A stretch of DNA of 64,000 nt, from positions 24,415,175 to 24,479,174 of the forward strand of contig NC_092677.1 of assembly GCF_964355755.1 (NCBI RefSeq), given 5' to 3'. Both the position numbers and the translations under genes were made by a program. The stretch comes from Antedon mediterranea. Taxonomy: Eukaryota > Animalia > Echinodermata. The notes beneath the pieces are model-generated. The model saw only the letters and a list, made by a program, of their open reading frames with translations. It did not search any database and was not told the DNA's origin. Positions 8,545-63,791 of this stretch are shown here, piece after piece (position 1 is the stretch's first letter; every line of letters starts with the position of its first letter).

Positions 8545-11500
8545 GGGTTTGAATAACAATCAAATTAGTACATTGACAGCCAATGCATTCGCTGGTTTGG
8601 AATCATTGGAATGGCTGTAAGTGACGTTGATTATGTTTACATACCTATGACGTTAATCATAATGTTATTTACTGCACAATATACACACATTTAACAAAAT
8701 TATTTTAAAACTAGTACATAAATATATGCCAGTGCTTATTGTGTCATATTCTAAATTAAATTCCTCATATTAAACTGTATGAAAGCAAACTTGAGCCTGA
8801 AACTGTAAAGGCTTTCCGTTGCAAAATGTAAAATTAAATGGTGAGTTTAGCAATTATTTGCTGATATGTTCACAATGATGTATAAATGTGTTATTGTCAG
8901 AAGTCTTAATAAATGTGATAGTTCATTGCAAAGCATCCACATCAGCCTATATTTATTTATTTGAATAATTAAAAAAAAATGTTGATTGTCTTTTAATTGT
9001 TTAATGAATTATTTAGCAGTATAATATGGTATAATTAATAAAACTATATCTTTTACATTTAACAACTTTTAAGGTGGTTTTTCGACAATCAAATTAGTAC
9101 ATTGACAGCCAATGCATTCGCTGGTTTGGAATCATTGGAAAAACTGTAAGTGACGTTGTTTATGTTTACATACCTATGACGTTAATCTTAATGTTATTTA
9201 CTGCACAATATACACATATTTAAAAACAATATTTTTAAACTAGTACATAAATATAGGCCAATGCTTATTGTGTCATATTCAAAATGAAATTAGTCAATAT
9301 TAAACTGTATGAAAGCATACTTGAGCCTGAAATTGTAAGGGCTTTCCGTTGCAAAGGTAAATTAAATGGCGAGTTTAGCAATTATTTTCTGTTAATCACA
9401 CAATGATGTATAAATGTGTTATTTTCAGAAATCTTAATAAAGGTGATAATTCATTGCAAAAAATCCACATCAGTCTATATTTAATTTATATTTCAATAAT
9501 ATAAAAATTGTTCATTGTTATATTTAATAAGTATTTAGCAGCATAGTATGCCTGTGGTGTAATGAATAAAACAACAATACATACAATATGTGATGTAAGA
9601 TATATGATGTGTGCTTTTTTAATGAAGTCAAATCGTTCAATTAAATAACAGGAAATATTCAGGTGTTATATAGTATGCTATAATTAATAAAACTATCTTT
9701 TACATTTCATAATTTTGAAGGTGGTTGCAAAGCAATCAAATTACTACATTGACAGCCAATGCATTTGCTGGTTTGGAATCATTGAAAGAACTGTAAGTGT
9801 TATTCTTCATCATATCCACATACGTATTTCCATATATCATGTTTTATACACATTACACATATTTAAAACTAGTACATAAATATAGGACAATGCTTATTGT
9901 GTCATATTCTAAATTAAATTCCTCAATAATAAACTGTATGAAAGCAAACTTGAGCCTGAAACTGTAAAGGCTTTCCGTTGCAAAATGTAAAATTAAATGG
10001 CGAGTTTAGCAATTATTTGCTGATATGGTCACAACGATTGTATAAATGTGTTATTGTCAGAAATCTTAATAAATGTGATAATTCATTGCAAAGCATCCAC
10101 ATCAGCCTATTTATTCATTTGAATAATTAAAAAAAAATGTTGATTTTTTTAAAAAAGTTCCTTAAATCATTGGAATGGCTGTAAGTGACGTTGTTTATGT
10201 TTACATATCTATGACGTTAATCATAATGTTATTTACTGCACAATATACAAATATTTACAAAACAATATGTTAAAGTAAACTTGAGCCTGAAACTGTAAAG
10301 GCTTTCCGTTGCAAAATGTAAATTAAATGGTAAGTTTAGCAATTATTTGTTAAGCACAAAATGATGTATAAAAGTGTTATTGTCAGAAATCTTACTAAAT
10401 GTGATAATTCATTGCAAAGCATCCACATCAACCTATATTTATTAATTTGAATTAAAAATAAATGTTGATTGTCTTGTAATTGTTTAATGAATTATTTAGC
10501 AGCACAATATGGTATAATTAATAAAACTTTCATATTTCACAACTTTTAAGGCAATTGCAAAACAATCAAATTATTGCATTGACAGAGAATGCATTCGCTG
10601 GTTTGAAATCATTGGAATGGCTGTAAGTGACGTTGTTTATGTTTACATACCTATGACGTTAATCATAATGTTATTTACTGCACAATATACACACATTTAA
10701 AAACAATATTTTAAACTAGTACATAAATATAGGCCAATGCTTATTGTGTCATTATTCAAAATGAAATTCGTCAATAATAAACTGTATGAAAGCAAACTTG
10801 AGCCTGAAACTGTAAAGGCTTTCCGTTGCAAAATGTAAATTAAATGGCGAGTTTAGCAATTATTTTCTGTTAATCACACAATGATGATGTATAAATGTGT
10901 TATTGTCAGAAATCTTAATAAAGGTGATAATTCATTGCAAAAAATCCACATCAGCCTATATTTAATTTATATTTCAATAATCTAAAAATGGTTCATTGTT
11001 ATATTTAATAAGTATTTAGCAGCATAGTAGGCCTGTGGTGTAATGAATAAAACAACAATACACACAATATGTATACATAGATATATGATGTGTGCTTTTT
11101 TAATGAAGTCAAATCGTTCAATTAAATAACAGGAAATATTCAGGTGTTATATAGTATGCTATAATTAATAAAACTATCTTTTACATTTCATAATTTTGAA
11201 GGTGGTTACAAAGCAATCAAATTACTACATTGACAGCCAATGCATTTGCTGGTTTGGAATCATTGAAAGAACTGTAAGTGTTATTCTTCATCATATCCAC
11301 ATACGTATTTCCATATATATCATGTTTTATACACATTACACATAAAACTAGTACATAAATATAGGACAATGCTTATTGTGTCATATTCTAAATTAAATAC
11401 CTCAATAATAAACTGTATGAAAGCAAACTTGAGCCTGAAACTATAAAGGCTTTCCGTTGCAAAATGTAAAATTAAATGGCGAGTTTAGCAATTATTTGCT

Positions 11501-13067
11501 GATATGCTCACAATGATGTATAAAAGTGTTATTGTCAGAAATCTTAATAAAGGTGATAATTCATTGCAAAAAATCCACATCAGTCTATATTTAATTTATA
11601 TTTAAATAATCTAAAAATGGTTCATTGTTATATTTAATAAGTATTTAGCAGCATAGTAGGCCTGTGGTGTAATGAATAAAACAACAATACACACAATATG
11701 TATACATAGATATATGGTGTTTGCTTTTTTAATGAAGTCAAATCATTCAATCAAATAACAGGAAATATTCAGGTGTTATATAGTATGCTATAATTAATAA
11801 AAACTATCTTTTACATTTCATAATTATGAAGGTGGTTGTTCAGCAATCAAATTAGTACATTGACAGCCAATGCATTCGCTGGTTTGGAATCATTGAAAGG
11901 CCTGTAAGTGACGTTGTTTATGTTTACCTATGACGTTAATTATAATGTTATTTACTGCACAATATATACGTATTTAAAAACAATAGTTTAAAACTAGTAC
12001 ATACATATAGGCCAATGCTTATTGTGTCATATTCAAAATGAAATTCCTCATATTAAACTGTATGAAAGCAAACTTGAGCCTGAAACTGTAAAGGCTTTCC
12101 GTTGCAAAATGTAAATTAAATTGTGAGTTTAGCAATTATTTGCTGATATGCTCACAATGATTGTATAAATGTGTTATTGTCAAAAATATTAATAAAGGTA
12201 ATAATTCATTGCAAAGCATCCACAGCGGCCTCTATTTATTTATGTAAAATTTTTTTTTTAAAGTTGATTGTCTTTTAATTGTTTAATGAATTATTTAGCA
12301 GTATAATATGGTATAATTAATCAAACTTTCATATTTCACAACTTTGAAGGTTGTTGTTCAACAATCAAATTAGAACATTGACAGCCAATGCATTCGTAGG
12401 CTTGAAATCATTGGATAGTCTGTAAGTGACGTTATTTATGTTTACATACCTATGACGTTAATCATAATGTTATTTACTCCACAATATACACATATTTAAA
12501 AAACAATATTTTTAAACTAGTACATAAATATATAGGCCAATGCTTATTGTGTCATATTCAAAATGAAATTCCGTAATATTAAACTGTATGAAAGCAAACT
12601 TGAGCCTGAAACTATAAAGGCTTTCCGTTCCAAAATGTAAATTAAATGGCGAGTTTAGCAATTATTTTCTGTTAATCACACAATGATGTATAAATGTGTT
12701 ATTTTCAGAAATCTTAATAAAGGTGATAATTCATTGCAAAAAATCCACATCAGTCTATATTTAATTTTTATTTAAATAATCTAAAAATGGTTCATTGTTA
12801 TATTTAATAAGTATTTAGCAGCATAGTAGGCCTGTGGTGTAATGAATAAAACAACAATACTCACAATACATAGATATATGGTGTGTGCTTTTTTAATGAA
12901 GTCAAATCATTCAATCAAATAACATGAAATATTCAGGTGTTATATAGTGTGGTATAATTAATAAAAACTATCTTTTACATTTCATAATTTTGAAGGTGGT
13001 TGGAAAACAATCAAATTAGTACATTGACAGAGAATGCATTTGCTGGTTTGGAATCATTGAAAGACCT
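8545..13067 (+). repeat. LRR exon-cassette array, copy 1 (8 exons plus a truncated remnant at ~10164-10180)
   Basis: 72-bp exons aag|..ct|gtaagt: GLNNNQ..EWL, WFFDNQ..EKL, WLQSNQ..KEL, QLQNNQ..EWL, WLQSNQ..KEL, WLFSNQ..KGL, LLFNNQ..DSL, WLENNQ..KDL. Confidence 0.95.
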
Positions 13068-14453: not shown

Positions 14454-15375
14454 ATATTCAGATTTGTTTCGTCTCTGTTGCCTTGTTGGAGAAATTGAAG
14501 TATGTGAGCCTACTGATGCATTTGCGTCATGCGCTGACTTACTAAAGAGAGAAGTTCTTAGGATATTGATGATAGTTATTGGACTGTCATCTTTGATTGG
14601 TAACTTGATTGTCATCATATCGCGAAGGATAAACAAAGAAAATAGTTCTACAGTTGATTCTATTCTACTCACTAATCTTGCCGCGTCTGACCTCCTGATG
14701 GCAATTTATTTGCTGATCATCGCAGGTGCGGATATACACTACAGAGGAAGGTACGCGAAGGTTGCCAGCGAATGGAAAAACAGCTTTCTCTGCTCTTTTT
14801 CCGGTGCTATTTCAACACTGTCTGGGCAGTGTTCCGTGTCAACCTTGATGCTTATGAGTGTTAACCGTGCTATAAACATCGTCTATCCATTCAGCACCAA
14901 ACGGCTCAAACGTACGAAATGCAAAATTATCATCGGAATTGCTTGGCTGGTATGGCTTTTTATTAGTTTTCTTCCACTGGTAGCTAACAAGTCACATGTT
15001 GGCATACCGTATTTTGGCGAGAACTACTACGGAAAACAGAGTGTGTGTCTCGCGTTGCCACTAACACGACATCGATTACCAGGCTGGGAGTACGCCACTG
15101 CCATATTCATCGCATTCAATGGCTTGGGGTTTTTTGTTATCGCAGCAAGTTATCTGACGATTTTCCTCTCCGTTAAGAGATCTGCAATCACGGCTAACAG
15201 AATGCAGAGACGAGAAGAGGAAATCAAAATGGCCGTGAAACTAGGGTTTATTGTTTTCACCGATTTCTGTTGCTGGTTTCCCATCATAGTAATGGGAATT
15301 TGTTCAGAGATGGAGTGGTGGAGAATTCCTGATGATATATACGTTTGGGCAGCAACATTTATTAATTCCCATTAA
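14454..15375 (+). CDS. Hinge + 7TM terminal exon, copy 1 (truncated in TM7)
   Basis: ORF 14464-15375: LFRLCC..CEPTDAFASCADLL hinge, GN (TM1), NLAASD (TM2), FTDFCCWFP (TM6); lacks NPxxY. Confidence 0.9.
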
Positions 15376-15622
15376 CTCATCAGTAAACCCATATCTTTAC
15401 ACAATTATCTATATGTGTAAAAGCGAGCGCAGGCCATAAAGAGCTGACATTCCCCGTGCTTTCTCAGTTTATTTATTTACTACATTTATTTATTCAATTT
15501 TGATTCACAAGGGTAGCTCTAACAGGTGTACTAGTACAGCTATCTTGAAGAGGCCCTTTTAAAAACATTATACAATTATACAAAAAGACATTCAAACATC
15601 AAATTACAAATAGATCCATAAA

Positions 15623-18224: not shown

Positions 18225-18257
<33 letters not shown>

Positions 18258-18262
18258 AACAC

Positions 18263-18296
<34 letters not shown>

Positions 18297-20029: not shown

Positions 20030-20302
20030 TCTGTTAGTGTTCAAATGTCCACGATACAACAGTATTGACAACACGTAACATTTGTTTAGTGTTTGGTTCT
20101 GTTAGTGTTCAAGTTTCCATCATACAACAGTGTTGAAAGCGCGTAGCATTTTGTTAGTGTTTGAATACACGATCAGGTTTTTGTATCGTGTTTGGTTCTG
20201 TCAGTGTCCATGTTTCCACCGTACAACAGTGTTGAATACACGATCAGGTTTTTGCATCGTGTTTGGTTCTGTCAGTGTCCATGTTTCCACCATACAGCAG
20301 TG
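20030..20302. repeat. ~60-bp minisatellite, short version (copy 2)
   Basis: Same unit, about 4-5 copies. Confidence 0.88.
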
Positions 20303-21549: not shown

Positions 21550-23883
21550 AGGTTTGTACAGCAATAACATTAGTACATTGACAGAGAATGCATTCGCTGG
21601 TTTGGAATCATTGGAATTACTGTAAGTGACGTTGTTTATGTTTACATACCTATGACGTTACTGCACAAATATACACATTATTATTTAAAAACAATACTGT
21701 AATTTAAAACTAGTAGTAGTACATAAATATATAGGCCAAATGCTTATTTGTGTCATATTTTAAATTAAATTCTTCATTCTTCCGTTGCAAAATGTAAATT
21801 AAATGGTGAGTTTATTTGCTGATAAGCACAAACGGATGTATAAAAGTATTATTGTCAGAAATCTTAATAAATGTGATAATTCATTTAAAAAAATCCACAT
21901 CAATCTATATTTATTTATTTGAAAAAAATGTTGATTGTCTTTGAATTGTTTAATGAATTATTTAGTAGTATTAGTATGCATGGTATATAATTAATGAAAC
22001 TATATATCTTTTACATTTCACAACTTTTAAGGCAATTGCAAAACAATCAAATTAGAACATTGACAGAGAATGCATTCGCTGGTTTGAAATCATTGGAAGT
22101 ACTGTAAGTGACGTTGTTTATGTTTACATACCTATGACGTTAATCTTAATGTTATTTACTGCACAATAAACACATATTTAAAAACAATATTTTAAAACTA
22201 GTACATAAATATATAGGCCAATGCTTATTGTGTCATATTCAAAATGAAATTCCTCAATATTAAACTGTATGAAAGCAAACTTGAGCCTGAAACTGTAAAG
22301 GCTTTCCGTTACAAAATGTAAATTAAATGGCTAGTTTAGCAATTATTTTCTGTTAATCACACAATGATTGTATAAATGTGTTATTGTCAGAAATCTTAAT
22401 AAAGGTGATAATTCATTGCAAAAAATCCACATCAGTCTATATTTAATTTATATTTCAATAATCTAAAAATGTTTCATTGTTATATTTAATAAGTATTTAG
22501 CAGCATAGTAGGCCTGTGGTGTAATGAATAAAACAACAATACATACAATATGTGATGTAAGATATATGATGTGTGCTTTTTTAATGAAATCAAATCGTTC
22601 AATCAAATAACAGGAAATATTCAGGTGTTATATAGTATGGTATAATTAATAAAAACTATCTTTTACATTTCATAATTTTGAAGGTGGTTGTACAACAATC
22701 AAATTAGTACATTGACAGCCAATGCATTTGCTGGTTTGGAATCATTGGAATGGCTGTAAGTGACGTTGTTTATGTTTACATACCTATGACGTTAATCCTA
22801 ATGTTATTTAGCACAATATACACATATTTACAAAACAATATTTTAAAACTAGTACATAAATATATAGGCCAATGCTTATTGTGTCATATTCTAAATGAAA
22901 TTCCTCAATATTAAACTGTATGAAAGCAAACTTGTGCCTGAAACTGTAAAGGCTTTCCGTTGCAAAATGTAAATTAAATGGTGAGTTTAGCAATTATTTG
23001 CTGATATGCTCACAATGATGTATAAAAGTGTTATTGTCAGAAATCACAATAAAGGTGATAATTCATTGCAAAGCATCCACATCAGCCTACATTTATTCAT
23101 GAATTATTTAGCAGTATAATATGGTATAATTAATAAAACTGTCATATTTCACAACTTTAAAGGTCGTTAAGGAGAAATCAAATTAGTACATTGACAGAGA
23201 ATGCATTCGCTGGTTTGAAATCATTAAGAGAACTGTAAGTGACGTTGTTTATGTTTACATATGACGTTAATCCTAATGTTATTTACTGCACAATATACAC
23301 ATATTTAAAAAACAATATTTTTAAACTAGTACATAAATATATAGGCCAATGCTTATTGTGTCATATTCAAAATAAAATTCCTCAATATTAAACTGTATGA
23401 AAGCAAACTTGAGCCTGAAACTGTAAAGGCTTTCCGTTGCAAAATGTAAATTTATATGGTGAGTTTAGCAATTATTTACTGATATGCTCACAATGATGTA
23501 TAAAAGTGTTATTGTCCGAAATCTTAATAAAGGTGATAATTCATTGCAAAAAATCCACATCAGTCTATATTTAATTTATATTTCAATAATCTAAAAATGG
23601 TTCATTGTTATATTTAATAAGTATTTAGCAGCATAGTAGGCCTGTGGTGTAATGAATAAAACAACAATACACACAATATGTATACATAGATATATGGTGT
23701 GTGCTTTTTTAATGAAGTCAAATCATTCAATCAAATAACATGAAATATTCAGGTGTTATATAGTATGGTATAATTAATAAAAACTATCTTTTACATTTCA
23801 TAATTTTGAAGGTGGTTGCAAAACAATCAAATTAGTACATTGACAGAGAATGCATTTGCTGGTTTGGAATCATTGAAATACCT
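21550..23883 (+). repeat. LRR exon-cassette array, copy 2 (5 exons)
   Basis: GLYSNN..ELL, QLQNNQ..EVL, WLYNNQ..EWL, SLRRNQ..REL, WLQNNQ..KYL; all 72 bp with AG/GT ends. Confidence 0.95.
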
Positions 23884-33157: not shown

Positions 33158-36100
33158 GGATTTGCAAAACAATCAAATTAGAACATTGACAGAGAATGCA
33201 TTCGCTGGTTTGAAATCATTGGAAGGACTGTAAGTGACGTTGTTTATGTTTACATACCTATGACGTTAATCCTAATGTTATTTACTGCACAATATACACA
33301 CATTTAAAAACATTATTTTAAAACTAGTACATAAATATAGGCCAATGCTTATTGTGTCATATTCTAAATTAAATTCGTCAATATTAAACTGTATGAAAGC
33401 AAACTTGAGCTTGAAACTGTAAAGGCTTTCCGTTGCAAAATGTAAATTAAATTGTGAGTTTAGCAATTATTTGCTGATATGCTCACAATGATAAATGTGT
33501 TATTGTCAGAAATCTTAATAAATGTGATAATTCATTGCAAAAAATCCACATCAATATATATTTAATTTATATTTCAATAATCTAAAAATGGTTCATTATT
33601 ATATTTAATGAGTATTTAGCAGTATAGTAGGCCTGTGGTGTAATGAATAAAACAACAATATACACAATATGTATACATAGATATATGATGTGTGCTTTTT
33701 TAATGAAATCAAATCGTTCAATCAAATAACAGGAAATATTCAGGTGTTATATAGTATGCTATAATTAATAAAACTATCTTTTACATTTTATAATTTTGAA
33801 GGTGGTTGGACAACAATCAAATTAGTACATTGACAGCCAATGCATTTGCTGGTTTGGAATCATTAGGAGGACTGTAAGTGACGTTGTTTATGTTTACATA
33901 CCTATGACGTAAATCTTAATGTTATTTACTCCACAATATACACATATTTAAAAACAATATTTTAAAACTAGTACATAAATATATGCCAATGCTTATTGTG
34001 TCATATTCTAAATTAAATTCCTCATATTAAACTGTATGAAAGCAAACTTGAGCATGAAACTGTAAAGGCTTTCCGTTACAAAATGTAAATTAAATGGTGA
34101 GTTTAGCAATTATTTGTTGCTGATATGGTCACAATGATGTATAAAAGTGTTATTGTCAGAAATCTTAATAAATGTGATAATTCATTGCAAAAAAATCCAC
34201 ATCAGTCTATATTTAATCATTTTAATAATTAAAAAAATGTTGATTGTCTTTTAATTGTTTAATGAATTATTTAGCAGTATAATATGGTATAATTAATAAA
34301 ACTTTCATATTTCACAACTTTTAAGGGGGTTGCAGTACAATCAAATTAGAACATTGACAGAGAATACATTCGCAGGTTTGGAATCATTGGAATGGCTGTA
34401 AGTGACGTTGTTTATGTTTACATACCTATGACGTTAATCATAATGTTATTTACTCCACAATATACACATATTTAAAAAACAATATTTTTAAACTAGTACA
34501 TAAATATATAGGCCAATGCTTATTGTGTCATATTCAAAATGAAATTCCTCAATATTAAACTGTATGAAAGCAAACTTGAGCCTGAAACTGTAAAGGCTTT
34601 CCGTTGCAAAATGTAAATTAAATGGCGAGTTTAGCAATTATTTTCTGTTAATCACACAATGATGTATAAATGTGTTATTGTCAGAAATCTTAATAAATGT
34701 GATAATTCATTGCAAAGTATCCACATCAGTCTATATTTAATTTATATTTCAATAATCTAAAAATGGTTCATTGTTATATTTAATAAGTATTTAGCAGCAT
34801 AGTAGGCCTGTGGTGTAATGAATAAAACAACAATATACACAATATGTATACATAGATATATGATGTGTGCTTTTTTAATGAAATCAAATCGTTCAATCAA
34901 ATAACAGGAAATATTCAGGTGTTATATAGTATGCTATAATTAATAAAACTATCTTTTACATTTTATAATTTTGAAGGTGGTTGGACAACAATCAAATTAG
35001 TACATTGACAGCCAATGCATTTGCTGGTTTGGAATCATTAGGAGGACTGTAAGTGACGTTGTTTATGTTTACATACCTATGACGTAAATCTTAATGTTAT
35101 TTACTCCACAATATACACATATTTAAAAACAATATTTTAAAACTAGTACATAAATATATGCCAATGCTTATTGTGTCATATTCTAAATTAAATTCCTCAT
35201 ATTAAACTGTATGAAAGCAAACTTGAGCATGAAACTGTAAAGGCTTTCCGTTACAAAATGTAAATTAAATGGTGAGTTTAGCAATTATTTGTTGCTGATA
35301 TGGTCACAATGATGTATAAAAGTGTTATTGTCAGAAATCTTAATAAATGTGATAATTCATTGCAAAAAAATCCACATCAGTCTATATTTAATCATTTTAA
35401 TAATTAAAAAAATGTTGATTGTCTTTTAATTGTTTAATGAATTATTTAGCAGTATAATATGGTATAATTAATAAAACTTTCATATTTCACAACTTTTAAG
35501 GGGGTTGCAGTACAATCAAATTAGAACATTGACAGAGAATACATTCGCAGGTTTGGAATCATTGGAATGGCTGTAAGTGACGTTGTTTATGTTTACATAC
35601 CTATGACGTTAATCATAATGTTATTTACTCCACAATATACACATATTTAAAAAACAATATTTTTAAACTAGTACATAAATATATAGGCCAATGCTTATTG
35701 TGTCATATTCAAAATGAAATTCCTCAATATTAAACTGTATGAAAGCAAACTTGAGCCTGAAACTGTAAAGGCTTTCCGTTGCAAAATGTAAATTAAATGG
35801 CGAGTTTAGCAATTATTTTCTGTTAATCACACAATGATGTATAAATGTGTTATTGTCAGAAATCTTAATAAATGTGATAATTCATTGCAAAGTATCCACA
35901 TCAGTCTATATTTAATTTATATTTCAATAATCTAAAAATGGTTCATTGTTATATTTAATAAGTATTTAGCAGCATAGTAAGCCTGTGGTGTAATGAATAA
36001 AACAACAATACATACAATATGTGATGTAAGATATATGATGTGTGCTTTTTTAATGAAATCAAATCGTTCAATCAAATAACAGGAAATATTCAGGTGTTAT

Positions 36101-37867
36101 ATAGTATGGTATAATTAATAAAACTATCTTTTACATTTCATAATTATGAAGGTGGTTGTACAGCAATCAAATTAGTACATTGACAGCCAATGCATTCGCT
36201 GGTTTGGAATCATTGAAATACCTGTAAGTGACGTTGTTTATGTTTACCTATGACGTTAATTATAATGTTATTTACTGCACAATATATACATATTTAAAAA
36301 CAATAGTTTAAAACTAGTACATACAAATAGGCCAATGCTTATTGTGTCATATTCAAAATGAAATTCTCCTATATTAAACTGTATGAAAGCAAACTTGAGC
36401 ATGAAAGTGAAAAGGCTTTCCGTTACAAAATGTAAATTAAATTGTGAGTTTAGCAATTATTTGCTGATATGCTCACAATGATTGTATAAATGTGTTATTG
36501 TCAGAAATATTAATAAAGGTGATAATTGATTGCAAAGCATCCACATCAGCCTATATTTATTTATTTGAATAATTAAAAAAAATGTTGATTGTCTTTTAAT
36601 TGTTTAATGAAATATTTAGCAGTATAATATGGTATAATTAATAAAACTTTCATATTTCACAACTTTGAAGGAGGTTGCAAAACAATCAAATTAGAACATT
36701 GACAGAGAATGCATTCGCTGGTTTGAAATCATTGGAACGTCTGTAAGTGACGTTGTTTATGTTTACATACCTATGAAGTTAATCCTAATGTTATTTAGTG
36801 CACAATATACACATATTTAAAAACAATATTTTAAAACTAGTACATAAATATATAGGCCAATGCTTATTGTGTCATATTCTAAATGAAATTCCTCAATATT
36901 AAACTGTATGAAAGCAAACTTGAGCCTGAAACTGTAAAGGCTTTCCGTTGCAAAATGTAAATTAAATGGTGAGTTTAGCAATTATTTGCTGATATGCTCA
37001 CAATGATGTATAAAAGTGTTATTGTCAGAAATCACAATAAAGGTGATAATTCATTGCAAAGCATCCACATCAGCCTATATTTATTCATGAATTATTTAGC
37101 AGTATAATATGGTATAATTAATAAAACTGTCATATTTCACAACTTTAAAGGTCGTTAAGCAGAAATCAAATTAGTACATTGACAGAGAATGCATTCGCTG
37201 GTTTGAAATCATTAAGAGAACTGTAAGTGACGTTGTTTATGTTTACATATGACGTTAATCCTAATGTTATTTACTGCACAATATACACATATTTACAAAA
37301 CAATATTTTAAACTAGTACATAAATATAGACCAATGCTTATTGTGTCATATTCTAAATTAAATTCCTTAATATTAAACTGTATGAAAGCAAACTTGAGCC
37401 TGAAACTGTAAATGCTTTCCGTTGCAAAATGTAAATTAAATGGCGAGTTTAGCAATTATTTTCTGTTAATCACACAATGATGTATAAAAGTGTTATTGTC
37501 AGAAATCTTAATAAAGGTGATAATTCATTGCAAAGCATCCACATCAGCCTATATTTAATTTATATTTTAATAATCTAAAAATGGTTCATTGTTATATTTA
37601 ATAAGTATTTAGCAGCATAGTAGGCCTGTGGTGTAATGAATAAAACAACAATACACACAATATGTATACATAGATATATGGTGTGTGCTTTTTTAATGAA
37701 GTCAAATCATTCAATCAAATAACATGAAATATTCAGGTGTTATATAGTATGGTATAATTAATAAAAACTATCTTTTACATTTCATAATTTTGAAGGTGGT
37801 TGCAAAACAATCAAATTAGTACATTGACAGAGAATGCATTTGCTGGTTTGGAATCATTGAAAGACCT
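33158..37867 (+). repeat. LRR exon-cassette array, copy 3 (9 exons)
   Basis: DLQNN..EGL, WLDNN..GGL, GLQYN..EWL, WLDNN..GGL, GLQYN..EWL, WLYSN..KYL, RLQNN..ERL, SLSRN..REL, WLQNN..KDL. Confidence 0.95.
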
Positions 37868-44137: not shown

Positions 44138-47100
44138 ATGTTCATCTTTAAAGACGCAAGAATACTAGTACTAGGCCTAGTACTAGAACTATTGCCATTC
44201 TGTTTCACAAATAATGCCAGACCTGGTATGTATTAAATGCATTTAACATTTAGAATTAAAGATGTATTGTCCCCCTGAAAAAATAATTCTTACAATTTTT
44301 TTTGTTAAATATGCCATTTTAATTTCACCTAATACTGTTGTTACGCTATCCACTTTTAGCAAAAATTAGATCGGGAAAAAAATGTATTTACCTAAAAGCA
44401 AAAGATAATAGTCAAATTGGCTGCCAAATTTTTTTTTTTTTATTGAATTTAACCATTTATTTTGTCATTTTATAAGTGAAAACATTTTTTTTATATAATT
44501 ATGTTCTGTGACCGTCTTCTAACAGTAGGTTAATGTTCATCTATTTCTGCATTCTTAAAATAACTATTATCTTTTGTTCATGTTTTATGTTGGTTGATGT
44601 TATGAGTTTACTGTACGGTATAAAACATATTTCGGTTTTTGCCGATTGTTCTCAGGTTTTATGAAATTGTCAAAACTTTGGAAAGTGTTTTTCTGTTAGT
44701 GTTAGTGTCCAAGATACAACAGTATTGACAACACGTAACATTTTGTTAGTGTTTGGTTCTTTTAGTGTTCAAATTTCCACCATACAACAGTGTTGAAAAC
44801 ACGTAGCATTTTGTTCTGCTAGTGTCCATATTCCAGCAAACAACAGTGTTGAATACGCGTATCATTTTGTTAGTGTTTGGATCTTTTAGTGTCCATGTTT
44901 CCACCATACAACAGTGTTGAACACACGATCATTTTGTTAGTATTTGGTTCTGTTGGTGTCCATGTTTCCACCATACAACAGTGTTGAACACACGATCATT
45001 TTGTTAGTATTTGGTTCTGTTGGTGTCCATGTTTCCACCATACAACAGTGTTGACTAACATTTTGTTAGCGTTTGGTTCTATTAGTGTTAAAGTTTCCAT
45101 CATACAACAGTGTTGAAAACACGTAGCATTTTGTTAGTGTTTGGTTCTATTAGTGTTAAAGTTTCCACCATACAACAGTGTTGAAAACACGTAGCATTTT
45201 GTTAGTGTTTGGTTCTATTAGTGTTAAAGTTTCCACCATACAACAGTGTTGAAAACACGTAGCATTTTGTTAGCGTTTGGTTATATTATTGTTCAAATTT
45301 CCACCTTACAGCAGTGTTGAACACACGTAGCATTGTGTTATAAGTGCTTGGTTCTGTTAGTGTCCATGTTTCCACCATACAACAGTGTTGACAAACATTT
45401 TGTTAGTGTTTGGTTCTTTTAGTGTTCAAGTTTCCACCATACAACAGTGTTGAAAACGCATAGCATTTTGTTAGTGTTGGGTTCTGTTTGTGTCCATGTT
45501 CCAATTCATACATAGCAGTGTTGAAAACAACATGTAGCATTTTGTTAGCGTTTGGTTCTGTTAGTGTCCATGTTTCCACCATACAACAGTGTTGAAAACA
45601 CGTAGCATTTTGCATCGTGTTTTGTTCTGTTAATGTCCATGTTTCCACCCTACAACAGTGTAACATTTTGTAAATCTGTATACTGTGGTCTAGAGCCTCA
45701 ATAACGTATAACTGTGTGCGTGTATGGCGAAGCTTATACGTTACCGGACACAGTCGAATACATTTGTTTTAAAGAAAATCTTATTTTAGAACTTATTAAA
45801 TTATTATTAACAAGGCATATTCATGGCTGCAGTCGCGTGCTCAAGTTAGTGTTTACCAGCCAACCCACCGAAAAACGCGACTCAAAAGCTAAGCATTAAA
45901 ACTAATGGGATACTAAAACTCATGATACAATACATTCCAATTAATAGTTTATGATGCATTCTGTTTTCTTTATTTTAAATTTTAAGGTTGTAACCGTATG
46001 TTATGTTGAATATAAAATTAATTTTAAGAGGATAATTAATATTTAAAGTTTTGCAAATTTACCATCTTTGAATTATTTTAAAAATAATGTTTGATTTATA
46101 CAACAGACCTACTGTACAAATTAATTTTTTATTAGTGTTTTTTTATTGGTGAACATCGACGAATAGGTCTGTATGCCTATACTTCACATACAAAATGTTC
46201 AGTCTATCCACAGGGTTGTTATAACAGTGACATACTACTTAGTGAAGTAACTTGTTTGCCATGGAACATGAATACAGTTACAGAACTCATTAAGTATAAT
46301 AAACAAAGCACCATATTATCATTGTAAGTATTGAAGTGTACATGCGGTTGCTTTTAAGTAAATACAGAATTTACTTTTTTTGGTGATAAACCGCTAACTT
46401 TGTTTATTTCTCAATGTAGAGGGTATTGCTAAACCGAAAACCTTAAAAAACATAGCAAACCCCATCGAACCAACATAAAAAAGTAGAATTTATTTCGTCA
46501 CTTTGACGAATTGATCATTGTGATAAAAAAATACATTAAAATTTGAGCGCAAAGCGTTGTAGTGCTGCTGAGTTGTGCCTATTGTGTAGTCTAGTCATAG
46601 AATATATAAAGTATATAATATACACGGGTCCCATATATGTTCTAATGGCATGATGACGTTATCCAAATCAAAGAAAAAAAATTACAGAATTGTAAATCGT
46701 CCAAAATAGACCATGATTTATTACTGAGATTTTTTCAAAAACACGGGTGAAATGGACTGATACTGCTAAGGGAGAGAAATGCCTAATAAAGTCTACTTTA
46801 GTTAAAAAATAAGAAAAAAAAAAGCATTGTATTTTGTAATTCTCACACTCTAGGCCCTTAACGTTAATTTTCTCTTCGTTTAGCAATTATTTACCGAGAA
46901 GCACAAAATGATGTATACAAGTGTTATTTTCAGAAATCTTAATAAATGTGATAATTTATTGTAAAGCGTTTACAACCAGCCTATATTTAAATTATATTTC
47001 ATTAATCTAAAAACGGTTCATTGTTATATTAAATAAGTATTTAGCAGCATAGTAGGCCTGTGGTGTAATGAATAAAACAACAACACACACAATAAGTGAT

Positions 47101-50100
47101 GTAAGATATATGATGTGTGCTTTTTTAATGAAATCAAATCGTTCAATCAAATAACAGAAAATATTCAGGTGTTATTATAGTATGGTATAATTAATAAAAC
47201 TATCTTTTACATTTCATAATTTTGAAGGTGGTTGCAAAGCAATCAAATTACTACATTGACAGCCAATGCATTTGCTGGTTTGGAATCATTGAAAGAACTG
47301 TAAGTGTTATTCTTCATCATATCCACATACGTATTTCCATATCATGTTTTATACACATTACACATATTTAAAACTAGTACATAAATATAGGACAATGCTT
47401 ATTGTGTCATATTCTAAATTAAATTCCTCAATAATAAACTGTCTGAAAGAAAACTTGAGCCTGAAACTGTAAAGGCTTTACGTTGCAAAATGTAAAATTA
47501 AATGGTGAGTTTAACAATTATTTGCTGATATGCTCACAATGATGTATAAAAAGTGTTATTGTCAGAAATCTTAATAAATGTGATAATTCATTGCAAAGCA
47601 TCCACATCAGTCTATATTTATTCATTTTAATAATTAAAAAAATGTTGATTGTCTTTTAATTGTTTAATGAATTATTTAGCAGTATAATATGTAGTATGGT
47701 ATCATGAATACAACTTTTTTTTATATTTCACAACTTTGAAGGTACTTGGAGTACAATCAAATTAGTACATTGACAGAGAATGCATTCGCTGGTTTGGAAT
47801 CATTGAAAGGACTGTAAGTGACGTTGTTTATGTTTACATACCTATGAAGTTAATATTAATGTTATTTACTGCACAATATACATATTTAAAAACAATATTT
47901 TAAAACTAGTACATAAATATAGGCCAATGCTTATTGTGTCATATTCTAAATTGAATTGCTCAACATTAAACTGTATGAAAGCAAACTTGAGCCTGAAACT
48001 GTAAAGGCTTTCCGTTGCAAAATGTAAATTAAATGGCGAGTTTAGCAATTATTTGCTGTTAATCACACAATGATGTATAAATGTGTTATTGTCAGAAATC
48101 CTAATAAATGTGATTAATTCATTTCAAAAAATCCACATCAATCTATATTTATTTATTTGAAAAAAATGTTGATTGTCTTTGAATTGTTTAATGAATTATT
48201 TAGTAGTATTAGTATGCATGGTATATAATTAATGAAACTATATATCTTTTACATTTAACAACTTTTAAGGTGGTTGTACAACAATCAAATTAGAACATTG
48301 ACAGAGAATGCATTCGCTGGTTTGAAATCATTGGAAAGTCTGTAAGTGACGTTTATTATGTTTAAATATCTATGACGTTAATCCTAAAGTTATTTACTGC
48401 ACAATATACACACATTTAAAAACATTATTTTAAAACTAGTACATAAATATAGGCCAATGCTTATTGTGTCATATTCTAAATTAAATTCCTCAATAATAAA
48501 CTGTATGAAAGCAAACTTGAGCATGAAACTGAAAAGACTTTCCGTTGCAAAATGTAAAATTAAATGGTAAGTTTAGCAATTATTTACTGATATGCTCACA
48601 ATGATTGTATAAATGTGTTATTGTCAGAAATATTAATAAAGGTGATAATTGATTGCAAAGCATTAACATCATCCTATATTTATTTATTTGAATAATTTAA
48701 AAAAATGTTGATTGTCTTTTAATTGTTTAATGAATTATTTAGCAGTATAATATGGTTTAATTAATCAAACTTTCATATTTCACAACTTTGAAGGGGGTTG
48801 CAGTACAATCAAATTAGTACATTGACAGAGAATACATTCGCTGGTTTGGAATCATTGGAAGAACTGTAAGTGTTATTGATTATGTTTACATACCTATGAA
48901 GTTAATCATAATGTTATTTACTGCACAATATACACACATTTAAAAACATTATTTTAAAACTAGTACATAAATATAGGCCAATGCTTATTGTGTCATATTC
49001 TAAATTAAATTCCTCAATAATAAACTGTATGAAAGCAAACTTGAGCATGAAACTGAAAAGACTTTCCGTTGCAAAATGTAAAATTAAATGGTAAGTTTAG
49101 CAATTATTTACTGATATGCTCACAATGATTGTATAAATGTGTTATTGTCAGAAATATTAATAAAGGTGATAATTGATTGCAAAGCATTAACATCATCCTA
49201 TATTTATTTATTTGAATAATTTAAAAAAATGTTGATTGTCTTTTAATTGTTTAATGAATTATTTAGCAGTATAATATGGTTTAATTAATCAAACTTTCAT
49301 ATTTCACAACTTTGAAGGATGTTGCATTACAATCAAATTAGTACATTGACAGAGAATACATTCGCTGGTTTGGAATCATTGGAAGAACTGTAAGTGTTAT
49401 TGATTATGTTTACATACCTATGAAGTTAATCATAATGTTATTTACTGCACAATATACACACATTTAAAAACATTATTTTAAAACTAGTACATAAATATAG
49501 GCCAATGCTTATTGTGTCATATTCAAAATGAAATTCCTCAATAATAAACTGTATGAAAGCAAACTTGAGCATGAAACTGAAAAGGCTTTCCGTTGCAAAA
49601 TGTAAATTAAATGGCGATTTTAGCAATTATTTTCTGTTAATCACACAATGATGTATAAATGTGTTATTGTCAGAAATATTAATAAAGGTGATAATTGATT
49701 GCAAAGCATCCACATCAGCCTATATTTATTTATTTGAATAATTAAAAAAAATGTTGATTGTCTTTTAATTGTTTAATGAATTATTTAGCAGTATAATATG
49801 GTATAATTAATAAAACTTTCATATTTCACAACTTTGAAGGAGGTTGGAGTACAATCAAATTACAACATTGACAGCCAATGTATTCGCTGGTTTGGAATCA
49901 TTGGAAAGGCTGTAAGTGACGTTGATTATGTTTACATACCTATGACATTAATCATAATGTTATTTACTGCACAATAAACACATATTTAAAAACAATATTT
50001 TAAAACTAGTACATAAATATAGACCAATGCTTATTGTGTCATATTCAAAATGAAATTCCGTAATATTAAACTGTATGAAAGCAAACTTGAGCATGAAAGT

Positions 50101-53100
50101 GAAAAGGCTTTCCGTTACAAAATGTAAATTAAATTGTGAGTTTAGCAATTATTTGCTGATATGCTCACAATGATTGTATAAATGTGTTATTGTCAGAAAT
50201 ATTAATAAAGGTGATAATTGATTGCAAAGCATCCACATCAGCCTATATTTATTTATTTGAATAATTAAAAAAAATGTTGATTGTCTTTTAATTGTTTAAT
50301 GAATTATTTAGCAGTATAATATGGTATAATTAATAAAACTTTCATATTTCACAACTTTTAAGGTGGTTGCAGTACAATCAAATTAAAACATTGACAGAGA
50401 ATGCATTCGCTGGTTTGAAATCATTGGAATGGCTGTAAGTGACGTTGTTTATGTTTACATACCTATGAAATTAATCCTAATGTTATTTAGTGCACAATAT
50501 ACACATATTTAAAAACAATATTTTTAAACTAGTACATAAATATATAGGCCAATGCTTATTGTGTCATATTCAAAATGAAATTCCTCATATTAAACTGTAT
50601 GAAAGCAAACTTGAGCTTGAAACTGTAAAGGCTTTCCGTTGCAAAATGTAAATTAAATTGTGAGTTTAGCAATTATTTGCTGATATGCTCACAATGATGT
50701 ATAAATGTGTTATTGTCAGAAATCTTAATAAAGGTGATAATTCATTGCAAAAAATCCACATCAGTCTATATTTAATTTATATTTCAATAATCTAAAAATG
50801 GTTCATTGTTATATTTAATAAGTATTTAGCAGCATAGTAGGCCTGTGGTGTAATGAATAAAACAACAATACACACAATATGTATACATAGATATATGGTG
50901 TGTGCTTTTTTAATGAAGTCATATCGTTCAATCAAATATTCAGGTGTTATATAGTATGGTATAATTAATAAAACTATCTTTTACATTTCATAATTTTGAA
51001 GGTGGTTGAAAAGGAATCAAATTAGTACATTGACAGAGTATGCATTTGCTGGATTGGAATCATTGAAACAACTGTAAGTGTTATTCTACATCATATCCAC
51101 ATACGTACCTCCATACTGTATATCATGTTATATACACATTACACACATTGTACATACACCGTAACCTTATTTGGTTACTTTTGTCGACATGAATTATTTT
51201 CATAATAATTCATTATTGAGTAAATCAAAATTATAGTATTTATTAGTTTGTTACCAATATTAGGAATATTTAGCATTGTTATAGCCTGTGAATCAAATTT
51301 AAGTAAGTAAGCTATAAGATTTAATAAGAAATTTTAACTTTATTCGTATTTATTCATTCATTTTGACACACCAGCCCTGGTATTTATTCTTACAAAGGTT
51401 TTACAATTTAATCTCACTCTTATTTGCTGTGACGAAATACCTCTCCTCATATACACACAATGTTTAAAAACAATATTTTAAAACTAGTACATAAAAGGCC
51501 AATTAAATTGTGTCATATTCAAAATAAAATTCCTCAACTGTAAAGCAAATTTGAGCCTGAAACTGTAAAGGCTTTAGGAAAATAAGTAAATAGCCTTTAC
51601 ATACCCTATTTTAAATTCTAAAAAGTCTGAAAAAATCTTCAAGTGCAGTCGTGATCGATTAGTGTATTTGACCAATGTAAACATATGAAGTGAATTTGTG
51701 CCTGAAACTGACAAGACTTTCCGTTACAAAATGTAAATTATATAGAGTGTTTACCAATTATTTGATAATATTCACACAATGTATTATTGTTATTGTCAGA
51801 AATATTCTTAATTCATGGCCTATATTTAATTAATCCAATAATCTAAAAATCAGTCATTGTATTCAATTGGATATTTGGCTAAAACTATCTTTTACATTTG
51901 AAAACTTTAAAGGTTGTTAAGCAATAATCAAATTAGTACATTGACAGAGAATGCATTCGCTGGTTTGAAATCATTGGAAAAGCTGTAAGTGACGTTGTTT
52001 ATGTTTACATACCTATGACGTTAATCGTAATGTTATTTACTGCACAATAAACACATATTTAAAAACAATATTTTAAAACTTATACATAAATATATGCCAA
52101 TGCTTATTGTGTCATATTCAAAATTAAATTCCTTAATATTAAACTGTATGAAAGCAAACTTGAGCGTGAAACTGTAAAGGCTTTCCGTTACAAAATGTAA
52201 ATTAAATGGTGAGTTTAGCAATTATTTGCTGATATGCTCACAATGATGTATAAAAGTGTTATTGTCAGAAATCACAATAAAGGTGATAATTCATTGCAAA
52301 AAATCCACATCAGCCTATTTATTTATTTGAATAATTAAAAAAAATGTTGATTGTCTTTTAATTGTTTAATGAATTATTTAGCAGTATAATAATATGGTTT
52401 AATTATTAATAAAACTATATCTTTTACATTTAACAACTTTTAAGGTGGTTGTACAACAATCAAATTAGTACATTGACAGCCAATGCCTTCGCTGGTTTGG
52501 AATCGTTGAAAGAACTGTAAGTGACGTTGTTTATGTTTACATACCTATGAAGTTAATCATAATGTTATTTACTGCACAATATATACATATTTAAAAACAA
52601 TATTTTAAAACTAGTACATTATAGGCCAATGTTTATTGTGTCATTATTCAAAATGAAATTCCTCAATATTAAACTGTATGAAAAAAACTTGAGCCTGAAA
52701 CTGAAAAGGCTTTCCGTTGCAAAATGTAAATTAAATGGTGAGTTTAGCAATTATTTGCTGATAATCACACAATGATGTATAAATGTGTTATTGTCAGAAA
52801 TATTAATAAAGGTGATAATGCATTGCAAAGTATCCACATCAGCCTATATTTATTCATTTTAATAATTTAAAAAATTTTGATTGTCTTTTAATTGTTTAAT
52901 GTTATTTAGCAGCTTAATATGGTATAATAATAAAACTATATCATTTATATTTCACAACTTTTAAGATATTTGCAAAACAATCAAATTAGTACATTGACAG
53001 CCAATACATTCGCTGGTTTGAAATCATTGGATAGTCTGTAAGTGACGTTGTTTATGTTTACATACCTATGAAGTTAATCCTAATGTTATTTACTCCACAA

Positions 53101-56100
53101 TATACACATATTTAAAAACAATATTTTAAAACTAATACATAAATATAGGCCAATGGTTATTGTGTCATATTCAAAATGAAATTTCTCAATATTAAATTGT
53201 ATGAAAGCAAACTTGAGCCTGAAACTGAAAAGGCTTTTCGTTGCAAAATGTAAATTTATATGGTGAGTTTAGCAATTATTTACTGATATGCTCACAATGA
53301 TGTATAAAAGTGTTATTGTCCGAAATCTTAATAAAGGTGATAATTCATTGCAAAAAATCCACATCAGTCTATATTTAATTTATATTTCAATAATCTAAAA
53401 ATGGTTCATTGTTATATTTAATAAGTATTTAGCAGCATAGTAGGCCTGTGGTGTAATGAATAAAACAACAATACACACAATATGTATACATAGATATATG
53501 GTGTGTGCTTTTTTAATGAAGTCAAATCATTCAATCAAATAACATGAAATATTCAGGTGTTATATAGTATGGTATAATTAATAAAAACTATCTTTTACAT
53601 TTCATAATTTTGAAGGTGGTTGGAAAACAATCAAATTAGTACATTGACAGAGAATGCATTTGCTGGTTTGGAATCATTGAAAGACCTGTAAGTGTTATTC
53701 TACATCATATCCACATACGTACCTCCATACTGTATATCATGTTATATACACATTACACACATTGTACATACATCGTAACCTTATTTTGTTACTTTTGTCA
53801 ACATGGATTATTTTCATAATAATTCATTTTTGAGTAAATCAAAATTATAGTATTTATTAGTTTGTTACCAATATTAGGAATATTTAGCCTGTGAATCAAA
53901 TTTAAGTCAGTAAGCTATAAGATTTAAAAAGAAATTTTTAATTTTATTCGTATTTATTTATTCATTTTGACACACCAGCCCTGGTTTTTATTCTTACAAA
54001 GTTATTACAATTTAATCTCACTCTTATTTGTTGTGACGAAATACCTCTCCTCATAGAATTGACCAATATACATTAACTATTAGCTTAATTAAACAGGTAT
54101 TTACAGGACAACAATATAACTACTATTGATCAAGGCGCCTTCTCTGTTTTTGCCTTATCACTTGGAAAACTGTAAGTAATTTATTCTGAAATTCATGCAG
54201 TTTCTCGAAATAATTAATCACTTCAATTAGGTACTTTTCTTATGCTATAAACATGTTATCCAAGAAAAAACGGTATCAACAGGATAGGTTTACATACATT
54301 TTTTAAACATGGGTAAATGTTTACATTCATTATTGTATCTGGCTCATTCCATGGAGTTGAAAATGAGAAAGCATTTTAAAAGTTAATATAACAAGTAGAA
54401 CAAACAACTTAAGTGGATTTACACTAATAATTACTTTGTATCTGTAACGTTAAAATATATACCAATGATAGATACATATAAAGTAGAAGGATTATCTTCG
54501 TGAGGTGGTTTCCCGAATGATCGTAAAATCAAAAACGGTACTGTGTATGACCAACTAGCGTTATTGTCACCGGCTAGTCATCCATTCATAGAAGTACTGA
54601 TGTAGTAGCCTACCTGTACGGAGACCATAGAATGTGACCCGAGGCATGACTAACTACGACTTTAGATGATAGGAAGTTGAGAAAAAATGTTACGAGTAGT
54701 TGTACGACATGAAGATGTTTATGAAATTATGTCAATAATGTTTACACACTAGGCATACAAATAGTAATGTTTGTTAGTAAAAATAATTTTGAGTTAATAA
54801 GAATAAGATATAAGAAAGAAAAGCAAAGAGACTATGGAGCGGCTATTCCTGAATATACAATACTAAAGTATCGTAGATTTAAATAATAAATTTTAGGCGA
54901 TCTTGTCAAAGGTCAAGCGCCATATAGCCTGCCACGTTTCGATATTCAATATTGAACTTGACCTTACTTTGTATCTGTAACGTTAAGGATAGATACATAT
55001 AAAGTAGAAGGATTATCTTAAGTGCCGACGGTGATAAAAATATTATTTTGAGACTACATTGCATCAGTTAGACACTATATTGATTGTGGTATACCTTCAT
55101 TAATACGATATCACTAAAACGACATCGGTGCTATCCAAATGAGACATACTCGTAGATATTTAGTTACATGTGAGCTACACTCATTGACACTGATTTGATA
55201 TTTGTTTCCATATTTATTTTTTTTACAGAGACATCAGACGCAACAATTTACAAGTTTACAGAGAAAGTACTTTTGAACAATTGAAATATATAACAGAATT
55301 GTAAGTATTATGTCGGATTTAGAAATTCTTTATATTCATTAAATTATATTTTTATTTTGTTTTAACACAGTTACCAATTCCACATGCATGCCGACAGTGG
55401 CCCAACAAAATTGTTTATGTAGGCCTACAGCTTTTAGGTTATTTTAAATTTCTCCTTCACTTCTATCTTTTAAATTGGTCGTACACGTCATACTTTTACT
55501 ATACGAGTAGATTTGATTGGCTGTAAAGCAGTTGTTATTCCACCTGTTATAGAACTAAAACCATTATAAACATTGTTATAGTAGGCTACTACTGTATTTA
55601 ACAACTTCCATTAAATTCAATTGTTTTTTTAACATAGATATTCAGATTTGTTTCGTCTCTGTTGTGTTGTTGGAGAAATTGAAGTATGTGAGCCTACTGA
55701 TGCTTTTGCGTCCTGCGCTGACTTACTAAAGAGAGAAGTTCTTAGGATATTGATGATAGTTATTGGACTGTCATCTTTTATCGGTAACTTGATTGTCATC
55801 ATATCGCGAAGGATAAACAAAGAAAATAGGTCTACAGTTGATTCTATTCTACTCACTAATCTTGCCGCGGCTGACTTGCTGATGGCAATTTATTTGCTGA
55901 TCATCGCAGGTGCAGATATACACTACAGAGGAAGGTACGCGAAGGTTGCCAGCGAATGGAAAAACAGCTTTCTCTGCTCTTTTTCCGGTGCTATTTCAAC
56001 ACTGTCTGGGCAGTGTTCCGTGTCAACCTTGATGGTTATGAGTATTAACCGTGCTATAAACATCGTCTATCCATTCAGCACCAAACGGCTCAAACGTACG

Positions 56101-56622
56101 AAATGCAAAATTATCATCGGTATTGGTTGGCTGGTATGGCTTTTTATTAGTTTCCTTCCACTGGTAGCTAACAAGTCACATGTCGGCATACCATATTTTG
56201 GCGAGAACTACTACGGAAAACAAAGTGTGTGTCTCGCGTTGCCACTAACACGACATCGATTACCAGGCTGGGAGTACGCCACGGCCATATTCATCGCATT
56301 CAATGGCTTGGGTTTGTTTGTTATCACAGCAAGTTATTTGACGATTTTCCTCTCCGTTAAGAGATCTGCAATCACGGCTAACAGAATGCAGAGACGAGAA
56401 GAGGAAATCAAAATGGCCGTGAAACTAGGGTTTATTGTTTTCACCGATTTCTGTTGCTGGTTTCCCATCATAGTAATGGGAATTTGTTCAGAGATGGAGT
56501 GGTGGAAAATTCCTGATGATATATACGTTTGGGCAGCAACATTTATAATTCCCATTAACTCATCAGTAAACCCATATCTTTACACAATTATCTATATGTG
56601 TAAAAGCGAGCGCAGGCCATAA
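44138..56622 (+). CDS. LRR-GPCR copy 4, intact, 17 exons, 746 aa (12 variable + 2 fixed LRR exons, 7TM), GRL101/RXFP-like
   Basis: Exons 44138-44225, 46167-46323; 72-bp exons starting 47228, 47742, 48270, 48794, 49318, 49840, 50363, 51002, 51913, 52445, 52966, 53616; then 54097-54171, 55229-55300, 55638-56622. Total 2241 nt = 747 codons; no internal stop seen. Confidence 0.9.
44693..45662. repeat. ~60-bp minisatellite (copy 4)
   Basis: Same unit, about 16 copies. Confidence 0.92.
47228..53687 (+). repeat. LRR exon-cassette array, copy 4 (12 exons)
   Basis: WLQSN..KEL, YLEYN..KGL, WLYNN..ESL, GLQYN..EEL, MLHYN..EEL, RLEYN..ERL, WLQYN..EWL, WLKRN..KQL, LLSNN..EKL, WLYNN..KEL, YLQNN..DSL, WLENN..KDL. 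Confidence 0.95.
54432..55019 (-). repeat. Intronic satellite-related block, copy 4
   Basis: Near-identical to 24631-25218. Confidence 0.8.
55638..56622 (+). CDS. Hinge + 7TM terminal exon, copy 4
   Basis: Intact 324-aa ORF 55648-56622. Confidence 0.95.
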
Positions 56623-63500: not shown

Positions 63501-63791
63501 CTCACACTCTTGGCCCTTAACGTTTATTTCTGTTTGTTTTTATATTTATTTATTTAAATTTTCTTTTGCATTTCACAACTTTAATAAATTAATTATTGAT
63601 GGTGATTTTGATTGAATAATTAAAAAAAATGTTGATTGTCTTTTTAATTGTTTAATGAATTATTTAGCAGCATAATATATGGTATAATTAATAAAACAAT
63701 ATCTTTTACAACTTATAAGGGGTTTGAATAACAATGAAATTAGTACATTGACAGCCAATGCATTCTCTGGTTTGGAATCATTGGAATGGCT
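60526..63791 (+). CDS. LRR-GPCR copy 5, 5' part (continues beyond window)
   Basis: Exons 60526-60613, 62487-62643, 63720-63791 (GLNNNEISTLTANAFSGLESLEWL), in frame; introns resemble copy 1. Confidence 0.85.
61080..61981. repeat. ~60-bp minisatellite (copy 5)
   Basis: Same unit, about 15 copies. Confidence 0.92.

Follow-up and report, generated by a model that had tools for sequence, protein, structure and literature searches.

In lampreys and hagfish, the VLR gene is incomplete in the germline and is completed in somatic cells from flanking cassettes; the x positions of the leucine-rich repeats (LRRs) are variable, and the proteins have no seven-transmembrane (7TM) domain. The repeats are 24 residues long and bind through their concave face (PMC4731796). 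In the ROCO arrays of brown algae, one LRR is encoded per 72-bp phase-2 exon, the genes are clustered, the exons are shuffled, and positive selection on the concave face has been described (Zambounis 2012 PMC3341825; Teng 2024 PMC11378527), as has alternative splicing of the LRR exons (PMC3341825, PMC11378527). Here we analyse one 64-kb stretch of DNA from the crinoid Antedon mediterranea (the window), which contains a tandem array of four complete genes and one partial gene for receptors with LRRs and a 7TM domain; the fifth gene continues past the window end. The array consists of units of roughly 11-16 kb, in each of which a variable LRR array is followed by two fixed LRR exons, of 75 nt and 72 nt, and by a single exon for the hinge and the 7TM domain.

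The likeness to the algal arrays lies in the exon design: one LRR per 72-nt phase-2 exon, with exon number and order differing among paralogs. By analogy, the cluster may work like the brown-algal ROCO arrays. However, ROCO proteins are intracellular Roc-COR GTPases, whereas the window receptors are predicted to be 7TM proteins of the cell surface, and the window has no opposite-strand LRR exons. The original prediction from this DNA had likened its variable positions to those of VLRs. That link is an analogy only, as the exons belong to genes of LGR-type G-protein-coupled receptors (GPCRs). The window modules are spliceable exons inside complete genes, and the C-terminus is a 7TM domain, not that of a glycosylphosphatidylinositol-anchored, secreted or single-pass LRR protein with a stalk. 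A VLR-type cassette locus was rejected, as every one of the 35 modules is an exon that lies within a gene and has intact splice sites, and all share one strand.

A six-frame motif scan together with an ungapped scan located the variable 72-nt exon 35 times in the interval from 8545 to 63791, always on the + strand. Each copy is bounded by AG and GTAAGT and is made of 1 nt, 23 codons and 2 nt, which is phase 2 on both sides; these symmetric exons carry homologous introns. None contains a stop or an indel, as had been claimed and as the ungapped scan confirmed, and frame and splice sites are kept in all 35. The exons are hypervariable at the predicted concave-face x codons, but they comprise 31 distinct sequences at the DNA level and 30 at the protein level, not 35. 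A 36th copy, in gene copy 1, is a remnant without its 5' part (about 10165-10182).

Variation was scored at x1-x5, the five x codons of LxxLxLxxN, chosen beforehand from the LRR motif. Across the 35 exons they hold 9, 10, 5, 5 and 11 different amino acids, respectively (entropy 2.4, 2.7, 1.8, 1.7 and 3.1 bits); the residue lists given originally for x1, x2, x3 and x5 were reproduced exactly, and Trp, Tyr, Phe and Arg, in which these positions had been called rich, make up 53 of 175 x residues. In the framework, 10 of the 18 non-x codons are invariant in protein, and codons 8, 12, 14 and 19 are moderately variable. Outside x1, x2, x3 and x5, further variation is present at x4, at codon 8 (five amino acids) and at codon 12 (Ala or Glu), and in the second exon of copy 1 (c1e2) Phe replaces one framework Leu.

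The exons are mosaic. All four allele combinations are present in 32 of 45 pairs of biallelic sites (four-gamete test), the nearest neighbour of a unit often changes with the part compared (upstream flank, exon or downstream flank) and often lies in another gene copy, and two exons of copy 3 are exactly duplicated. The intron falls inside the second Leu of LxxLxLxxN and splits the strand motif into x4-x5-L and x1-L-x2-x3-N. Each strand face therefore takes x4-x5 from one exon and x1-x3 from the exon after it, so that a different neighbour is enough to create a new face; 27 of the 30 faces formed at exon junctions are distinct. Linkage of x4-x5 to x1-x3 of the next exon was not found to be tighter than linkage within an exon (0 of 6 across-intron tests significant). 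Exon borders inside the beta-sheet are also reported for human NLR genes (PMC6642158, section 6). Codon 11 is Thr in all 35 window exons and Ala in both variable repeats of a relative with 95% identity, as concerted evolution would give. The intron after the eighth exon of copy 4 (c4e8; 51074-51912) starts as an intron of the terminal type, which elsewhere leads to the fixed 75-nt exon, breaks off shortly before such an exon would begin and then resumes as an array intron; it is a trace of the unequal crossing-over that lengthened copy 4.

The x codons are far more diverse than the neutral references. Mean nucleotide diversity (pi) was 0.47 at x1-x5, compared to 0.078 in introns (249 columns) and 0.067 at 4-fold sites of the framework (6 sites). 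The intron comparison covers 29 units, those whose downstream intron is homologous; of the 35, five with terminal-type introns and c2e1 were excluded. In 200,000 random draws of five intron triplets, pi reached at most 0.30, and in a control using the top 4 of 23 codons the observed 0.52 exceeded the null maximum of 0.405. The excess over introns is 6-fold in pi and 9-fold after Jukes-Cantor correction. Close pairs gave the same picture. They are the 15 edges, out of 34 in a spanning tree computed from flanking sequence alone, whose flank distance is <=3%: x codons differed at 31 of 225 nt, 9.6 times the flank rate, and the framework at 12 of 810 nt, which is the flank rate. The excess at the x codons is mostly nonsynonymous, with 21 nonsynonymous codon differences to 1 synonymous at 3% and 45 to 1 at 5% (23 edges). 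Among single-base x differences in close pairs, 1 of 27 was synonymous, compared to 18% expected (p 0.03, with edges that are not independent), and the x codons contain no stops, though about 15% of point mutations there would create one. The x codons are clearly more divergent than the introns, the comparison on which the original prediction had staked itself. It had also described a framework nearly invariant even at synonymous sites; an unusually invariant synonymous framework was rejected, as the 4-fold sites are no quieter than the introns. Framework invariance therefore reflects recent duplication, that is, common ancestry.

Site models were fitted to the 31 distinct exons with our own implementation, in which branch lengths were scaled and not re-optimised. 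M8 was favoured over both M7 (likelihood-ratio test statistic, LRT, 83.7) and M8a (LRT 79.3), with an omega of 9.25. Posteriors for the selected class were 1.0 at x1, x2 and x5, 0.95 at codon 12, and near 0 at x3 and x4; x1, x2 and x5 thus behaved as predicted, and x3 fell outside the class. A pooled test gave an omega of 5.1, an LRT of 49 and 40 distinct residues, and this signal was reached in none of 120 neutral simulations, in which recombination was either by blocks or free (maxima: omega 3.98, LRT 22.1, 23 residues). Intron-anchored rates (x1 30, x2 30, x5 80, which is the grid limit, x3 and x4 5, codon 8 3, codon 12 5) were regarded as inflated by recombination and were not used as estimates.

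The window 7TM domain matches Pfam 7tm_1. Its best sequence match in the PDB is RXFP1 (7tmw, E 1e-47), with LHCGR, FSHR and TSHR also among the top matches. As in LGRs, a rhodopsin-class 7TM domain nearest to relaxin and glycoprotein-hormone receptors is combined with an LRR ectodomain that, in the predicted frames of copies 2 and 4, runs in frame into a Cys-rich hinge and the 7TM domain. The closest protein, XP_071959546.1 of A. mediterranea, is labelled GRL101-like and is 95% identical. Its NCBI model has the same repeat chain leading into the 7TM domain and backs the splicing modelled here, which the window genes presumably follow. None of 10 sequencing runs listed is recorded as RNA. In contigs from four runs that align to 53300-57000, no GT..AG joint occurs among 15 of the 21 joints, and the run presumed to be RNA also covers introns; these contigs say nothing about expression in either direction. 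A short exon between the last LRR exon and the 7TM exon was dropped, as the relative's model joins the two directly. A conserved ATG-to-GT frame in the array introns (for example 12045-12115) serves as the first exon in that NCBI model; this first exon is probably a prediction artefact, an internal start being the alternative.

In a near-length search, named crinoid proteins made up 19 of 28 matches. In a midpoint-rooted 7TM tree of 39 rows, from which copy 1 was omitted because of its frameshift and in which Lymnaea GRL101 was not among the rows, the 26 crinoid rows, including three from the window, form one clade (support 100/99). Inside it, the 22 rows that lack an LDLa motif form a group of their own (99/100), separate from the mollusc and hemichordate rows. 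On sequence, this tree places the cluster in a crinoid, LDLa-less expansion of GRL101-related LGRs. The cluster shares with the GRL101-like or type C LGR family (Lymnaea GRL101, RXFP1/2) its 7TM domain and hinge (95% to P0032), but it differs in being multi-copy, in its variable repeat number, in its homogenised repeats and in the lack of a detected LDLa exon. GRL101 proper is marked by multiple N-terminal LDLa repeats; no LDLa-like open reading frame (ORF) was found upstream in the window, where the predicted 5' ends are uncertain, and no LDLa Pfam or motif match in the 22-row clade. Nor do the window genes group with molluscs as a single-copy receptor would: theirs is a multi-copy crinoid clade apart from Physella, Lottia, Glandiceps and Ptychodera. 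Phase-2 introns have been reported in the LRR region of gonadotropin receptors (PMC11378527), and one ortholog per LGR sub-branch in ambulacrarians (PMC8286064). LDLa-less LRR-7TM proteins with <=24 detected 24-residue repeats also occur outside the crinoid clade, in scallops (P0005, P0019, P0025) and other animals (P0026, P0028), and are possible parallel expansions.

An Antedon paralog, XP_071956026.1 (P0067), has 11 repeats with a different framework and an entropy of 1.96 at x positions, compared to 0.39 elsewhere. Higher entropy at x positions is a general LRR trait and was seen in all 11 proteins with enough repeats (14 examined), among which P0067 has the most uniform framework. The AlphaFold model of P0067 (predicted local distance difference test score 85), used as a stand-in for the spliced window protein, matches LGR4, FSHR and TSHR and shows a three-residue strand every 24 residues, spanning x5-L-x1. 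The proposed mapping of the x codons thus holds for strand position on this paralog model. From general LRR geometry, not from coordinates, we take the side chains to point into the solvent on the concave side and place x2-x3 in the loop after the strand.

We propose, with a probability of about 0.58, that the window holds interchangeable one-repeat exons in a tandem cluster of LRR-GPCR genes, shuffled in the germline and under diversifying selection, most likely for non-self ligands. Unequal crossing-over and short gene conversion among exon-intron units would multiply and reorder the exons, the same exchange would homogenise framework and introns, and selection would retain new residues at the predicted concave-face codons. 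Each gene would display its own binding surface by means of a different set of exons (5 to 12), and the near-constant 7TM domain would pass on the signal of ligands that are most likely fast-changing and non-self. What weighs against this proposal is the expression of a related receptor, the behaviour of the x codons when synonymous rates are left free, and damage to some of the gene copies.

The analogy with the ROCO arrays, the sea urchin TLRs and a snail GRL101-like cluster makes non-self recognition the most likely use, and the cluster would then be a candidate variable non-self receptor family. Sea urchin TLR ectodomains are largely intronless, and these receptors differ from the window genes in their TIR signalling and in having no exon-level modules. 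The likeness to the window genes is that of LRR receptors expanded in an echinoderm; pseudogenes occur among them, and positive selection is reported on their concave strands (PMC3367398). In the snail Biomphalaria sudanica, 12 paralogous GRL101-like genes are densely clustered in SudRes2, a region associated with resistance to a parasite (schistosome), and show presence/absence and truncation (PMC12297450). Unlike the window genes they encode CTL and LDL domains, it is a neighbouring gene that contains the top variants, and neither LRR exon shuffling nor site selection is reported in the part of that paper considered here (PMC12297450).

The same shuffling and selection could instead serve environmental, conspecific or gamete-surface cues, in chemosensation or in mate or allo-recognition. 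The receptor is a rhodopsin-class GPCR whose ligand cannot be named from sequence, but in odorant receptors it is the 7TM pocket that varies, whereas here the 7TM domain is nearly constant (the 7TM exons of copies 2-4 differ at 6-18 of 328 codons). A starfish GRL101 is enriched, by overexpression, in sensory tentacles, which favours a sensory role (PMC6267866); against this, LRR receptors that are known or candidate immune receptors show this combination of change in repeat number and selection on the concave face (PMC3341825, PMC11378527, PMC3367398). We regard a sensory or reproductive use as possible but rather unlikely. A broader claim would be that crinoids own a genome-wide GPCR receptor system analogous to VLRs, with many LDLa-less LGR genes on several chromosomes, each a cassette of symmetric LRR exons that vary on the binding face and are reordered in the germline, used in immune or allo-recognition, with exons skipped cell by cell and every junction a new face; this is speculative, and we doubt it.

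Alternatively, the x codons may be unconstrained, without ongoing positive selection, and owe their diversity to a total substitution rate raised by local mutational bias or by short conversion from older, more diverged donors at other places in the genome. With a free synonymous rate (alpha), alpha at the x codons is raised 3.6- to 27-fold relative to the framework across the trees and models used, and equality of alpha with the nonsynonymous rate (beta) was not rejected there in any of 8 fits (p 0.13-0.91). Pairwise pN/pS at x1-x5 is 1.06, and several bases are involved in 19 of 46 close-pair codon differences (5%, 23 edges). Coalescent simulations (22 replicates per scenario) favoured a codon-local hot spot over selection: on coalescent trees, among 44 replicates with selection only, just 1 attained the synonymous surplus (9), and likewise 1 the alpha ratio (4.4). 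On a data-derived tree, selection alone was compatible with the data (P 0.26-0.70, 300 replicates per setting). We take the raised alpha to reflect saturation together with short conversions that move whole codons between units. Region-wide hypermutation at the exon ends was rejected: of the Leu, Asn and Ile synonymous sites between or beside the x codons, 8 of the 12 examined are without a synonymous variant, and such mostly invariant interleaved sites argue against it. The 21:1 ratio in close pairs and the lack of stops also speak against this alternative, variation falls on the same positions in a paralog whose framework is different, and diverse donors would need an explanation of their own. 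We therefore consider this alternative improbable.

The x codons exceed the introns and M8 is favoured over M7, the type of test applied in the brown-algal papers, but significance is lost with a codon-specific synonymous rate, both for the site-model test and for the ROCO-style selection on the concave face. Measured against introns, flanks and synonymous sites of the framework, positive selection at the x codons is therefore shown; within codons, a dN/dS above 1 is only weakly shown.

We consider it very improbable that the window is a segmental duplication in decay, or an artefact of assembly, without working variable receptors. Lesions are present in 2 of the 4 complete copies (a TM7 frameshift in copy 1; loss of the LRRNT-like exon and a 71-nt exon in copy 3), but they lie outside the variable LRR exons, which all retain frame and splice sites. 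With the predicted signal-peptide and LRRNT-like exons, the open frames of copies 2 and 4 span 568 and 734 residues, the copies diverge by 1-3% in their unique flanks, an annotated relative at 95% has the same exon chain, and 7 of 8 alleles in a contig of another sequencing run recur in other window copies.

Table 1. Features of the receptor gene cluster (positions in the window)
Feature	Position	Strand	Remarks
Copy 1, 8 variable LRR exons	8545..13067	+	starts 8545, 9074, 9721, 10551, 11202, 11832, 12350, 12996
Copy 2, 5 variable LRR exons	21550..23883	+	predicted frame open 568 aa
Copy 3, 9 variable LRR exons	33158..37867	+	e2e3 = e4e5; gene likely broken
Copy 4, 12 variable LRR exons	47228..53687	+	predicted frame open 734 aa
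Copy 5, first variable LRR exon (at least 1)	63720..63791	+	window ends afterwards
Candidate signal-peptide exon, copy 4	44138..44225	+	88 nt, phase 1; from hydrophobic ATG-to-GT scan, frame joins; predicted
Candidate signal-peptide exon, counterparts	5305, 18908, 30740, 60526	+	predicted
Candidate LRRNT-like exon, copy 4	46203..46323	+	phase 1 to 2; predicted
Candidate LRRNT-like exon, counterparts	7357, 20855, 62523	+	missing from copy 3, deletion near 32787
Fixed 75-nt LRR exon, copy 4	54097..54171	+	also 13479, 24294, 38279; identical peptide in XP_071959546
Fixed last 72-nt LRR exon, copy 4	55229..55300	+	also 14044, 25427; 71 nt at 38842 (copy 3 frameshift)
Hinge + 7TM exon, copy 4	55638..56622	+	7tm_1, E 1.4e-30
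Hinge + 7TM exons, copies 2 and 3	25836-26820; 39250-40234	+	
7TM exon, copy 1	14454..15439	+	TM7 frameshift, frame ends ~15375
Minisatellite	5857-6815, 20100-20300, 31274-32306, 44684-45661, 61071-61980		

Among 76 proteins, the best phmmer match of the LRRNT-like exon was P0033, a weak one (E 0.11). Compared to its counterpart in copy 1 (7357-7477), the LRRNT-like exon of copy 2 (20855-20981) has a 6-nt insertion and many residue changes mid-exon, and its middle part is also strongly divergent from copies 4 and 5, which suggests that the LRRNT cap is diversified as well. The minisatellite, of variable length and with units of roughly 32-64 nt, lies between the candidate signal-peptide and LRRNT-like exons in every copy. 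The window starts (1-2416) with tandem copies of a repeat of ~1.08 kb. In copies 2 and 4, the intron between the fixed LRR exons contains an insert of ~570-590 nt that looks similar to this repeat (24600-25190; 54410-55002), and the intron is 1058 and 1057 nt long, compared to 490 and 488 nt in copies 1 and 3, where the insert is missing. It has very high depth in other sequencing runs, with an empty-site joint in two of them, and is a high-copy mobile element. Upstream of copy 2, two opposite-strand ORF fragments (19148-19790) resemble the C-terminal end of a reverse transcriptase of a long interspersed nuclear element; they gave no Pfam match.

Elsewhere, an expansion of LDLa-GPCRs without LRRs has been reported in Ciona (PMC2396169), and one of adhesion GPCRs, with LRRs in 5 of 22, in octopus (PMC6408891). 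A feather star genome paper gave no match to GRL101, leucine, GPCR or expanded (PMC13079724). No description of the combined design in a rhodopsin-class LGR, or for crinoids, was found in the full-text literature searched, a body that leaves subscription papers mostly outside and whose supplement tables could list such an expansion. Each ingredient is already known; their combination in a rhodopsin-class LGR is the new part.

Hormone receptors that are conserved and mostly present in one copy: this is how LGRs are known. If our proposal is true, GPCR signalling would join the short list of variable-receptor designs in invertebrates, in the earliest-branching class of echinoderms, and the exon design of the brown-algal ROCO genes would be repeated on an unrelated signalling domain. 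It would add weight to the link between a GRL101-like cluster and parasite resistance in snails. With a near-constant 7TM domain and framework and five variable codons per repeat, the cluster would also be a natural test bed for the evolution of LRR specificity.

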